11,125 nt of DNA from UHGV virus genome UHGV-0137787; one strand, given 5' to 3'. Below are positions 3,475 to 5,045 of the stretch, piece after piece. Under the pieces are notes generated by a model, which saw nothing but the letters and a program-made list of their open reading frames with translations, was not told the DNA's origin and searched no databases. The DNA comes from a virus. Within the stretch, counting starts at the first letter, position 1, and every line of letters starts with the position of its first letter. A program made the translations under genes and the position numbers.

Positions 3475-3616
3475 TTATTAACCTCATTACTGGTTGGGAA
3501 ATAAGGTTGCGGTGCCGGGTGCCTCCCGGTGTCCTTTGGCTGGTTATCTACCGTGGACGGGGAAACAAGGAGAAATGAATGGACTGATATAACCATTTCC
3601 CCGCGTGCGCTTAGCC

Positions 3617-3693
3617 GCATTCACCGCAACGGAAAGAGCATTCTTGGTGGACCTGTAGATTGGGATATGAACCCGTTACAGGAGAATGCTCTT
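3617..3693. repeat. Hairpin module A: GCATTCACC lead, 11-bp perfect inverted repeat (3634-3644 / 3683-3693) enclosing the conserved motif GTAGATTGGGATATGAACCCGTTAC (3655-3679)
   Basis: Direct inspection; paralogous to module B. Confidence 0.55.
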
Positions 3694-3877
3694 ACCTGTT
3701 GCGTACTCCGTTTCATGGAGCTAACGGCGGGGGATCAGACCGCACCAGACTGGACTTATTTCAGCGTTATGCTCATGCCAGAGAATCAAACTGTGATGGT
3801 CGGTGCTGAACTCCGACACAGGGTTGTAGCAAGCCCCGCAAAGCGCGCACTACTGTAGTTGCGGCACATCAGCCTGT

Positions 3878-3977
3878 GCATTCACCACAATGTTGAGAAC
3901 ACTGGTTGTCACGCTGCAACGCAACATTTATTCGTAGATTGGGATATGACCCCGTTACGCCAGTGTTCTCAACGTTG
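3878..3977. repeat. Hairpin module B: GCATTCACC lead, 18-bp inverted repeat (3888-3905 / 3960-3977, one G-U-compatible mismatch) enclosing GTAGATTGGGATATGACCCCGTTAC (3934-3958)
   Basis: Direct inspection. Loop motif is 24/25 identical to module A, while the stem arms have a different sequence but still pair. Confidence 0.55.
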
Positions 3978-4124
3978 TAGTGCCGGTTACGGTTCCGGCC
4001 AGGCCTCTTCCTCAACGGGGTGTTCTCCATACGGACTACCGTTTATTGGTCGTTCCTGCGGTTTATGTTGTGAAGCCAGATGCTTATCTTCTGGTTGCTT
4101 CTAAGAGCTGCACTTCATCACAAC

Positions 4125-4198
4125 GGTAAGGGTACTTCGTAGGGATTCGAACCCTCTGCCAAGCACAGCGATCTCCGACGTCGCAAAATACCCTTACC
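4125..4198 (-). pseudogene. tRNA-like remnant or non-canonical tRNA-like element bounded by a 10-bp terminal inverted repeat
   Basis: Contains a canonical T-arm (AGGG-TTCGAAT-CCCT) and a D-arm-like hairpin (GCGA-CGTCGGAGA-TCGC), but I could not fold a canonical cloverleaf; ends are GGTAAGGGTA / TACCCTTACC. Sits 8 nt downstream of tRNA-Thr. Confidence 0.3.
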
Positions 4199-4206
4199 TG
4201 TTGTGT

Positions 4207-4282
4207 TGGTGCCGGTTAACGGACTCGAACCGCTGACATCCTGCTTACAAGGCAGGCGTTCTACCAACTGAGCTAAACCGGC
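4207..4282 (-). tRNA. tRNA-Thr (anticodon UGU)
   Basis: Hand-folded: acceptor GCCGGTT/AACCGGC, anticodon stem CCTGC/GCAGG with loop CTTGTAA, T-loop TTCGAGT, encoded CCA; one C-A mismatch in the D-stem. Confidence 0.85.
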
Positions 4283-4284
4283 AT

Positions 4285-4360
4285 TGGCGATGGAGGATGG
4301 ATTTGAACCATCGACCCGTTGATTAACAGTCAACCGCTCTAACCGCTGAGCTACACCATC
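4285..4360 (-). tRNA. tRNA-Asn (anticodon GUU)
   Basis: Hand-folded: D-arm GCTC-AGCGGTTA-GAGC, anticodon stem GTTGA/TCAAC with loop CTGTTAA, T-arm GATGG-TTCAAAT-CCATC, encoded CCA; one mismatch in the acceptor stem. Only 2 nt separate it from tRNA-Thr. Confidence 0.85.
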
Positions 4361-4825
4361 ACTTGCCGGGTACGTCTCCGGCGAGGGCTTCCACCTCCGT
4401 ATGCTTTTCGGCGCCCGCGCCCTGGCTGAAATTCGGTAACAGGGGATGCATAACCCTGGCTTCCAGCGTGATTAGCGCCTTCAGCATGACGGGATATACC
4501 CGTTACAAGAAATTATCCCAGGATGCCATTAAGCAATGGCTGTTACGCTGAATGAAAAAGGACGTAACAGGTAAGGACGCTGACCAAAGAGATGGCCCCT
4601 TCTCGCTCATCTGGTTAATCGAACCAGCGCCCTTGCCTGTTATGCCTCCCCGTTCCCTAATACACAGACGGGGACACTCTGCGGTCGATTTTTTGACGGG
4701 GGACGACTCATACCCCGTGGCGTCAGGCTTCTTAGGCCGCTACCATCATCAGATCATCGTTTGCATTTACTTTAATGGTCAGTTTATAAACCGCCGCAAA
4801 GTCGCTAACCATGACGAAAACCCTG

Positions 4826-4850
4826 AAAAAACGCCCACCCGAAGATGGGC
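4826..4850 (-). terminator. Intrinsic (Rho-independent) terminator on the minus strand
   Basis: Minus strand reads GCCCAUC-UUCG-GGUGGGC followed by G and six U: a 7-bp GC-rich stem with a UUCG tetraloop. The plus strand has no T-run, so it is unidirectional. Confidence 0.65.
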
Positions 4851-5017
4851 AAACTGGATGAACAGATCGTTAGGCATTTCGGTGTCGCCACTTAGGTGCA
4901 TGGTCAACCTGGCAACTCGGTGGCCATGTGGGCGGAGTAACCCAGCCATGCTTACCGCCGCGCCTATCGCGGGTAATAACTCAATCCGCTTTATAAATCC
5001 CGTTTCATTGAAACAAT

Positions 5018-5045
5018 ATTACTCTAATAAATTTATTAGAGCAAT
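5018..5045. promoter_or_regulatory. Palindromic pair of overlapping P1 C1-repressor operator-like 17-mers
   Basis: Minus-strand site at 5029-5045 reads ATTGCTCTAATAAATTT, 17/17 against the C1 operator consensus as I recall it; plus-strand site at 5018-5034 reads ATTACTCTAATAAATTT (16/17). Together they form the perfect palindrome CTCTAATAAATTTATTAGAG, which overlaps the dmt stop codon. Confidence 0.6.

Follow-up and report, generated by a model that had tools for sequence, protein, structure and literature searches.

A probable C1-repressed ban-operon promoter and leader with a module resembling transfer-messenger RNA in a P1-like phage-plasmid

What is the role of 685 bp of DNA that encode no credible protein and lie directly ahead of two tRNA genes in a phage genome? 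The stretch in question covers positions 4361-5045 of an 11,125-nucleotide segment of the virus genome UHGV-0137787 (the whole segment is referred to as the window), and its elements are read mostly on the minus strand. An initial annotation, made from the sequence alone, had described a repressor-operator palindrome, a 13-bp palindrome and an intrinsic terminator, and had offered two explanations, a repressor-controlled RNA or the structured 3' end of the upstream dmt operon; all of its elements were found where it had placed them. We consider it probable that the region comprises the C1-repressed promoter-operator P1ban/Op72ab followed by the long untranslated leader of the ban operon, and that this leader is built as an array of RNA modules, one of them derived from transfer-messenger RNA (tmRNA). 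The operator, the promoter, the dicF-like leader and the terminator are already known P1 biology.

The window belongs to a P1-like phage-plasmid. The 1.2 kb around the interval are 92-93% identical to P1, SJ46 and other P1-likes, and in a distant BLAST search of plasmids the 685 bp were matched at least partly in 643 records; most are non-mobilisable plasmids of ~90-100 kb, with E. coli, Salmonella and Klebsiella as hosts. As the annotated P1 reference we used GenBank AF234172 (locus L001), where the minus strand runs from the end of dmt through Obanab, P1ban with a predicted P2ban, a 'dicF-like region', tRNA-Asn and tRNA-Thr to tciA/B/C, trnI, ban and dbn. The operator is described there as 'divalent C1-controlled operator Obanab; corresponds to former Op72ab; controls expression of ban', and the ban operon is given as trnA, trnT, tciABC, trnI and then ban. 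The tRNAs in the window were confirmed by both ARAGORN and Rfam.

At the dmt-trnA junction, Op72ab consists of two overlapping, oppositely oriented sites laid over a sigma-70 promoter, and it overlaps the last codons and the stop of dmt (open reading frame (ORF) end 5036). Op72a (5029-5045, minus strand) has no mismatch to the asymmetric 17-bp C1 consensus ATTGCTCTAATAAATTT and Op72b (5018-5034, plus strand) has one. A third site (8827-8843, minus strand), again with one mismatch, corresponds to P1 Op68/Odmt ahead of uhr-hrdC-dmt. Three consensus matches in the window compare with 0.04 expected, and three were reached in none of 200 shuffles, which bears out the earlier description of the palindrome as C1-operator-like. 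The −35 and −10 elements that had been guessed on the minus strand, TTGCTC (5044-5039) and TAATAT (5021-5016) with a spacer of 17 nt, are the hexamers annotated as P1ban in AF234172, and from the promoter spacing transcription is predicted to start near 5009. In P1 the operator and promoter stand at the same place, at the end of dmt and upstream of trnA, with overlapping opposed 17-bp sites and identical hexamers. P1 Op72b, ATTACACTAATAAATTT (L001, 5412-5428), has two mismatches to the consensus, whereas its counterpart here, ATTACTCTAATAAATTT, is closer to it and the palindrome is more perfect. Binding and repression by C1 at Op72ab would be expected from the P1 annotation and literature.

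The 13-bp palindrome is present in the form of two 6-bp arms around a single base, although it deserves no weight. Its arms hold bases specific to the window, P1 reading CGCCTCAATGAATCG at the same positions, so the start region differs from that of P1 in carrying a lineage-specific repeat. By our own arithmetic about 0.2 repeats of the 6+1+6 type, with that spacing alone, are expected by chance in 685 bp. It is therefore not evidence of a site; it is specific to the lineage and probably non-functional.

Just past the terminator the minus strand carries a module of ~175 nt (~4823-4648), in which it reads UAAAU GCA AAC GAU GAU CUG AUG AUG GUA GCG GCC UAA. As in tmRNA, the internal frame resumes at an Ala codon and closes with a hydrophobic residue and two alanines (ANDDLMMVAA). 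The tag encoded by E. coli tmRNA is ANDENYALAA. Among homologues of the module we collected 29 distinct 33-nt tag ORFs, all of them exactly ten codons and a stop. Codons 1 and 2 are invariant (GCA AAC), codons 3 and 4 specify D, E or N, codon 5 is Leu (CTG/TTG/CTT) or Val (GTA/GTT/GTG/GTC), among others, codon 9 is GCG, GCA, GCC or GTA, and codon 10 is GCC, GCT, GCG or GCA in 28 of the 29; the stop is TAA or TAG and never a sense codon. Variants of the tag in other carrier phages include ANDDVVLMAA, ANDEQFLAVA and ANEEMYLAVA. Third positions vary in codons 8-10 with the first and second fixed, and no nucleotide changes in the first three codons or in the 20 nt upstream of them. The tag has no ATG, GTG or TTG start in its frame, an in-frame UAG stands eight codons upstream in most homologues and, by inspection of the homologue sequences, the alternative AUG frame is of variable length. 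The codon usage suggests, as far as sequence comparison goes, that selection acts on the tag peptide.

We scanned one genome of each bacterial species for the 17-mer RTAAATGCAAACGAWGA and examined the first 120 matches. Twenty-five of these are tmRNA genes called by ARAGORN, from Legionellales and beta-proteobacteria, in which the 17-mer falls exactly at the resume codon; four permuted beta-proteobacterial tmRNAs among them have ten-codon tags, ANDENFAMAA or ANDENYAIAA. Two permuted-tmRNA models also matched 4694-4861 (minus strand) weakly in a permissive Rfam scan, mostly over the tag part, where RF04321 gave 25.7 bits (E = 0.0033 for the region). The tag region was matched by permuted-tmRNA models in all five divergent homologues tested (20.5-26.3 bits), and only permuted tmRNA models match the module.

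A structural model read from the sequences was tested on a 47-sequence alignment (A3), with slid partners and shuffles as controls. In pseudoknot a, stem 1 pairs ACGGGG (4718-4713) with CCCCGU (4701-4696) and the loop GUCG (4707-4704) pairs with CGAC (4687-4684); in pseudoknot b, stem 1 pairs CGCAG (4683-4679) with CUGUG (4667-4663) and stem 2 pairs CCCCGU (4673-4668) with ACGGGG (4653-4648). For the H5-like helix and the two pseudoknots 93.3% of cells pair, compared with 36-43% when the partners are slid. Both sides have changed in 14 of the 25 pairs, compensatory cells number 120 as against 35 in shuffles, and none of 500 shuffles reached the observed covariation score. Double changes occur in all four pseudoknot stems. 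The loop partners of pseudoknot a include CCGA/UCGG, CCAG/CUGG, CCAA/UUGG, GUCG/CGAC (P1, Uz-1) and CUAG/CUAG (Aeromonas), and the partners in stem 1 of pseudoknot b include CGCAC/GUGUG, CGCAG/CUGUG, CGCAU/AUGUG and CGGAG/CUCUG. An equivalent of the tmRNA pseudoknot PK1 upstream of the tag was not established, the sequences being invariant in a nearly invariant 5' domain; a CUUUG/CAAAG pairing proposed for it was rejected, as N4-like variants give it no support.

The module is widespread. It turned up in 314 GenBank phage records, spread over many families, in a distant search, and where the annotation was listed it held nothing or only 'hypothetical protein' at this place. Among the carriers are the P1 group, siphophages of T1 size (~45-48 kb; Drexlerviridae, for example CS01, and relatives, for example the phage named C1), Ackermannviridae, Schitoviridae, Chaseviridae (Aeromonas pAh6-C), the lambdoid phage HK633 and pYD38-A, deposited as a Vibrio phage; a pattern scan of IMG/VR gave 120 further loci. 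Of 5426 complete E. coli genomes, 656 also contain it, on the chromosome at 150 places and on plasmids at 554, and the 12 of these places among the matches listed have no annotated feature. The same 100-130 nt recur in unrelated replicons, for example Klebsiella phage-plasmids and a lambdoid prophage of Shiga toxin-producing E. coli (between ninH and the holin gene), and in both of these the tag is kept through synonymous changes. Phage D6 has the terminator hairpin directly ahead of the tag module, and the two are shared at 95%, as are the remaining leader and the tRNAs, while its upstream region differs, with no dicF blocks and no Op72; it follows that the terminator hairpin and the module travel together. 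We regard the module as well supported as a conserved, structured and phage-widespread element with a tag-like frame under selection.

Is it, then, a tmRNA? A number of points weigh against the assignment and the wider scheme around it. Neither in the window nor in 28 loci does ARAGORN call a tmRNA and, with no tRNA-like domain found, the canonical route for decoding the tag is missing; many carrier phages also lack a nearby tRNA-like gene. The scores with tmRNA models are below threshold, at best 25.7-26.3 bits where 47 are required for RF04321 and 17 where 84 are required for RF01850. A profile of the 5' domain, run against genome loci, retrieved no tmRNAs and no significant match, so that the homology of this domain rests on direct comparison. 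The periodic variation of the tag sits partly in a helix, and RNA-level constraints therefore contribute to the codon pattern. The transcription start, the efficiency of termination and the read-through that the scheme calls for are all inferred. Lastly, the novelty of the module is apparent only, given a limited literature check: a phage tmRNA-like RNA of this kind is undescribed in Rfam 15, in the record annotations, in a limited full-text search and in a 2014 survey of 543 RefSeq bacterial viruses, which reported ssrA only in eight mycobacteriophages and named, outside that set, Bacillus phage G and mycobacteriophage DS6A, the latter having the tRNA-like domain only (PMC4131195).

On inspection, no T-arm, acceptor stem, G3-U70 pair or CCA was seen in cis in the homologue loci, and the neighbouring tRNAs differ between carrier phages. 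Three candidates for a tRNA-like domain were rejected. An acceptor-like helix, AGUUUU/GAAACU followed by GACCA, does not covary at 2:71, has G3-C70 in place of G-U as its third pair and is internal to the RNA; those inserts of the long hairpins that carry a T-arm lack a free 3' end and a CCA; and an STnc100-like cloverleaf, though closed by a 7-bp stem, lacks a T-loop and a G-U pair. As to other identities for the module, the Rfam families AgvB, AsxR and Esr41 gave no match, and the Pas small RNAs (sRNAs), confined to seven phage genomes, each have a terminator at their end.

In some phages the module has a promoter of its own. In phage C1 it lies alone in a 545-nt gap, antisense to structural genes, where a TTGACA-17-TAGATT promoter sets the start at ~AGAUAGUUUUCG. 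A strong sigma-70 promoter puts the start at CAGAUAGUUUUCG in siphophages of T1 size (phage C1; by eye also pYD38-A), and Aeromonas pAh6-C has a promoter-like repeat of its own. This promoter-defined 5' end agrees at 17 of 20 positions with CAGAUAGGUUUCGGGGCGAC of permuted beta-proteobacterial tmRNAs, where that segment comes after the acceptor strand and the D-loop analogue GGGGAUGACCUGGUUUCGAC. The resemblance implies that the phage RNA starts just past the place of the 5' tRNA-like half. Since no tRNA-like domain was found the module is not a canonical tmRNA, and we file it as tmRNA-derived. We read it, from these comparisons, as a likely descendant of the coding piece of a (two-piece) tmRNA, spread by phages as a self-contained RNA gene.

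The module may be an untranslated mimic or decoy of the mRNA-like domain of tmRNA, one that binds or distracts a host factor or a defence nuclease recognising tmRNA, with the tag kept only as RNA. The lack of a tRNA-like domain, an acceptor end and a start codon would suit this, as would the invariant nucleotides in and before the first three codons and the helix that takes in part of the tag. Against this, codons 8-10 vary at the third position only, all four Ala codons are used at codon 10, and across the 29 distinct ORFs TAA gives way to TAG but never to sense and the length never departs from ten codons. Overall we think a decoy somewhat unlikely. The codon pattern favours, so far as sequence can indicate, a use in which the tag is decoded. 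It is nevertheless quite doubtful that the stand-alone coding piece is truly decoded, either in trans with host tmRNA-SmpB or an unrecognised acceptor RNA or by way of its own pseudoknots, such that rescued proteins would receive a tag specified by the phage.

The promoter-proximal part of the leader raises a separate question. The segment annotated in P1 as 'dicF-like region' corresponds to the interval from promoter to terminator (~5009 to 4826, ~184 nt). The terminator had been called textbook, and rightly so: its stem GCCCAUC/GGUGGGC, of 8 pairs with 5 G-C, forms a G+C-rich hairpin followed directly by the U-tract, with a folding energy of −12.8 kcal/mol (z = −3.1), and it is invariant in 40 P1-like homologues. 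A repressor-controlled RNA of ~185 nt had been one of the two initial explanations, and a C1-controlled RNA of ~184 nt is a straightforward prediction and essentially the accepted reading. A distant BLAST search of plasmids found positions 4880-4972 to be ~77% identical over 93 nt to an EDL933 prophage segment that sits just upstream of DicF (76.9 bits, above the Rfam threshold) and of dicB. In a three-way alignment, mature DicF is replaced in the P1-likes by the GCCCAUC-UUCG-GGUGGGC terminator.

It is possible that the ~184-nt RNA, or a processed 3' fragment of ~55 nt, works as a DicF-type base-pairing sRNA that blocks ftsZ or other host mRNAs in lytic growth. The P1 annotators labelled the region dicF-like, two blocks are homologous to the dicF locus with a terminator at the equivalent place, and a lytic-phase inhibitor of cell division would suit control by C1. 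However, the DicF model (RF00039) gives no match in 4340-5080 even at E ≤ 10, though it scores the EDL933 copy so well, and the homology is limited to the precursor part and excludes mature DicF. The seed would have to fall in the 55 nt preceding the terminator, the least conserved part among the 40 P1-likes, with an indel included, and for the 160 nt ahead of the hairpin shuffled sequence folds equally well (z = 0.13). A structure-homology search had been proposed for the ~185-nt segment; the covariance search gave no match to the DicF model there, and the dicF-locus blocks come from sequence comparison. No Rfam family reached its threshold within 4361-5045, and no riboswitch or other known RNA was identified there. 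Membership of the DicF family is therefore rejected, the covariance model failing, and 'dicF-like' is a fair label for the locus, by the homology of its precursor part. A DicF-type function, while possible, is not favoured and we take it to be unlikely. The 5' end of the tag module (~4800-4823; CAGAUAGUUUUCG.GAGCGACUUUGCGG in most phages) bears a loose resemblance to the 3' half of DicF, AUCAGUUUUACUCCGUGACUGCUCUGCCG (locus L004, 1925-1976), and DicF might be related to the tag module, though the DicF model does not detect the module.

ssrA is a frequent integration site of phages and pieces of it are often carried by them; this, with the missing tRNA-like domain, could be taken to mean that the tag module is the decaying and functionless remainder of a bacterial tmRNA gene picked up by a phage. 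We find this very improbable. The module is nearly invariant in the 40 P1-likes while the adjacent leader varies, it is kept in the 314 phage records from unrelated families with compensatory changes in four helices, some phages give it its own promoter, and the fragments left by ssrA integration hold the 3' end and not the tag region.

The other initial explanation, a structured 3' untranslated region of the uhr-hrdC-dmt operon with the C1 operator as a transcriptional roadblock, is hardly credible, although the operator does overlap the end of dmt on the same strand. Against it stands the promoter beneath the operator, with its 17-nt spacer, which the P1 record names P1ban and credits with control of ban. 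Op68 already serves the dmt operon as a C1 operator, so that a second block would be redundant in lysogens, and D6 has the same downstream modules with no dmt or Op72 upstream. By comparison with P1, Op72ab/P1ban is to be taken as the start of the ban operon and not as a dmt 3' untranslated region.

That the stretch is protein-coding, for instance through the 167-aa plus-strand ORF 4552-5055, can be dismissed almost entirely, as the initial annotation had judged: open frames do exist and three hypothetical proteins are annotated in phage SJ46 over the wider 4100-5300, but among 41 unique homologues the region measures 634-724 nt in length steps that are not multiples of three, the longest frame shifts between 69 and 167 aa and changes frame and position, and the P1 and RefSeq plasmid annotations are mostly empty here.

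We therefore return to the ban-operon leader. In the lysogen, by annotation and homology, C1 on the two overlapping 17-bp sites over the −35 and −10 elements would allow nothing to be made. Once C1 is lost, transcription would begin near 5009, and much of it would end at the terminator, at 4826, to give the ~184-nt RNA homologous to the precursor portion of dicF loci in prophages. The fraction reading through would comprise the ~175-nt tmRNA-derived module, a long hairpin, tRNA-Asn, tRNA-Thr, further structured modules, tciABC, trnI and ban; the order of the modules downstream of the terminator is seen directly in the sequence. In P1-likes the terminator occupies the place where other phages carry the promoter of the module. 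As no promoter-like site was seen between 4826 and the tRNAs in the window, the P1-like module and trnA/trnT should need read-through from the C1-controlled Pban. No sign of a dedicated antitermination element was seen at the locus.

The pattern of conservation in the leader is the reverse of what filler would give. Positions 4850-4560 and 4500-4360 are almost invariant among P1-likes, and the tag module is nearly invariant where the promoter-proximal RNA is variable. The approach to tRNA-Asn had been described as hairpin-rich; its 8-bp stem 4540-4547/4563-4570 is real, but the 465 nt past the terminator are the most conserved part and not filler. In the last part of the leader the flanks ~4361-4505 and 4556-4565 are nearly invariant among P1-likes and 4510-4555 varies. 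The long-hairpin module is repeated at ~4118-4203, 3632-3697 and 3885-3975 (minus strand; folding z = −3.9 to −6.5), and its copies are probably the repeated motif noted initially. The base CACAAC/GUUGUG is conserved, the arms of 17-22 bp (e.g. AGGUAAGAGCAUU/AGUGCUCUUUCCU) covary within each copy, and the variable inserts of 40-90 nt include some with a canonical T-arm GGGUUCGAAUCC, as at 4140-4160 in the window. It occurs in many other phages, and also in loci L003, L009, L010, L029, L128 and L129. Perfect stems of 17-22 bp are substrates of RNase III, and a guess on this basis is that the hairpins help to divide the array into its parts; they may be RNase III-type processing stems, or else remnants of the helix joining the two pieces of tmRNA.

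The features of the region and of the two tRNA genes that follow it are collected below.

Table. Features of the promoter-operator, leader and first genes of the putative ban operon, in window coordinates.
Feature	Position	Strand	Basis or remarks
Bivalent C1 operator Op72ab (Oban)	5018-5045	−	Consensus match and P1 annotation
Sigma-70 promoter P1ban	5016-5044	−	Hexamers as annotated in P1
6+1+6 inverted repeat GTTTCATTGAAAC	5002-5014	both	Across predicted transcription start
dicF-locus-like block 1 CCGCGAUAGGCGCGGCGGUAAGCAUGGCUGGG	4941-4972	−	Shared upstream of EDL933 prophage DicF
dicF-locus-like block 2 CCACCGAGUUGCCAGGUUGACCAUGCACCUAAGUGGCGAC	4884-4923	−	Shared upstream of EDL933 prophage DicF
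Intrinsic terminator	4826-4851	−	7-8 bp stem, UUCG loop, G + U6
5' domain of tmRNA-like module GGGUUUUCGUCAUGGUUAGCGACUUUGCGG...CUGACCAUUAAAGUAAAU	4765-4823	−	Nearly invariant across phage families
Tag reading frame	4732-4764	−	Resume GCA 4764-4762, ANDDLMMVAA, stop UAA 4734-4732
H5-like helix, stop codon in apical loop	4717-4748	−	Pairing tested in alignment, helices 1 and 2
Pseudoknot a	4684-4718	−	Compensatory changes, helices 3 and 4
Pseudoknot b	4648-4683	−	Compensatory changes, helices 5 and 6
Long hairpin	4566-4641	−	Arms AACAGGCAAGGGCGCUG/CAGCGUCCUUACCUGUU, 42-nt insert, z = −3.9
Rest of leader to tRNA-Asn	4361-4565	−	Found only in P1 group
tRNA-Asn	4285-4360	−	First operon gene after leader
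tRNA-Thr	4207-4282	−	Next operon gene after tRNA-Asn

Further observations concern the surroundings of the module in this and other phages. In phage D6 (L131, 1056-1142) a 'tRNA-Ser with apparent UGA anticodon, amino acid not called by tRNAscan-SE' is annotated at a position that roughly matches the third long hairpin of the window, and modules of the array thus look tRNA-like to gene finders. An STnc100-like cloverleaf (RF02076) at 3508-3628 of the window (minus strand) scores 36.5 bits, under the threshold of 47, and a second STnc100-like unit (UGUGGUGAAUGC...CAUCACA) lies at ~3800-3897; such units come after long hairpins. An Ackermannviridae-like contig (L094, 1118-1331) has an STnc100-like RNA of 48.7 bits, above that threshold, between the tag module and tRNAs. 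The plus-strand ORFs at 3529-4104 (upl and plp of P1, where plp overlaps tRNA-Thr) run antisense to the structured RNA array, and their frames differ in the few P1-likes that cover the region, with 117+81 aa here and 92+115 aa elsewhere; upl and plp may be annotation artefacts. In the Escherichia phage Uz-1 (Schitoviridae; L128, 510-951) ARAGORN places a 'tRNA-Ala(CGC)' without G3-U70 ~110 nt upstream of the module, and the 3' end of the module adjoins an odd 'tRNA-Cys(ACA)', where cleavage by RNase P would define that end. In another locus (L009, ~13590-13700, minus strand) a hairpin insert upstream of the tag module holds UGGGGUCGAGCGGG, which the permuted-tmRNA model aligns to the D-loop analogue UGGuUUCGACggG of tmRNA; judged by sequence, the insert may be a remnant of the 5' tRNA-like half, though no T-arm or acceptor is present.

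If the module is what it appears to be, diverse phages carry the message half of a ribosome-rescue RNA, in a set spanning P1, T1-sized siphophages, Vi1-like, N4-like and lambdoid phages and ~12% of complete E. coli genomes. This would give a testable link between phage infection and trans-translation, with the re-tagging or protection of rescued proteins in question, and would raise the question of whether a tmRNA template can work without its own tRNA-like domain. If the tag were decoded, a phage tag (...LMAA, ...MVAA, ...LAVA) would replace the host ...ALAA on rescued proteins in infected cells, and the P1 module would be released only once C1 repression of Pban is lifted. The module would also give a name to a conserved gap that is empty in the inspected records.

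Several known systems resemble parts of this leader. The dicF locus of Qin-type lambdoid prophages has in common with it the two blocks upstream of DicF and a terminator at the corresponding place, but differs in that mature DicF is replaced in the window and the presumed seed region is poorly conserved. The STnc100/PasD prophage sRNAs occur in the same RNA arrays as the tag module, yet are a different module, with no tag frame and outside the flagged interval. The two-piece (permuted) tmRNA of beta-proteobacteria has the identical 17-nt resume context, a ten-codon AND...AA tag, a stop in a hairpin loop, a pseudoknotted body and a similar 20-nt segment (CAGAUAG.UUUCG.G.GCGAC) at a comparable distance upstream. 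Unlike it, the phage module has no acceptor strand, D-loop analogue, acceptor piece (T-arm, CCA) or G3-U70, scores far under the family thresholds and is phage-borne, not the single ssrA of a cell. The phage tmRNAs of the mycobacteriophage Bxz1 group and Bacillus phage G and the RNA of DS6A are likewise phage-borne derivatives of tmRNA. Mycobacteriophage DS6A shows that a phage can retain only one half of tmRNA (PMC4131195). Whereas the phage tmRNAs are complete and the DS6A RNA is the tRNA-like half alone, the module in the window would be the opposite half.

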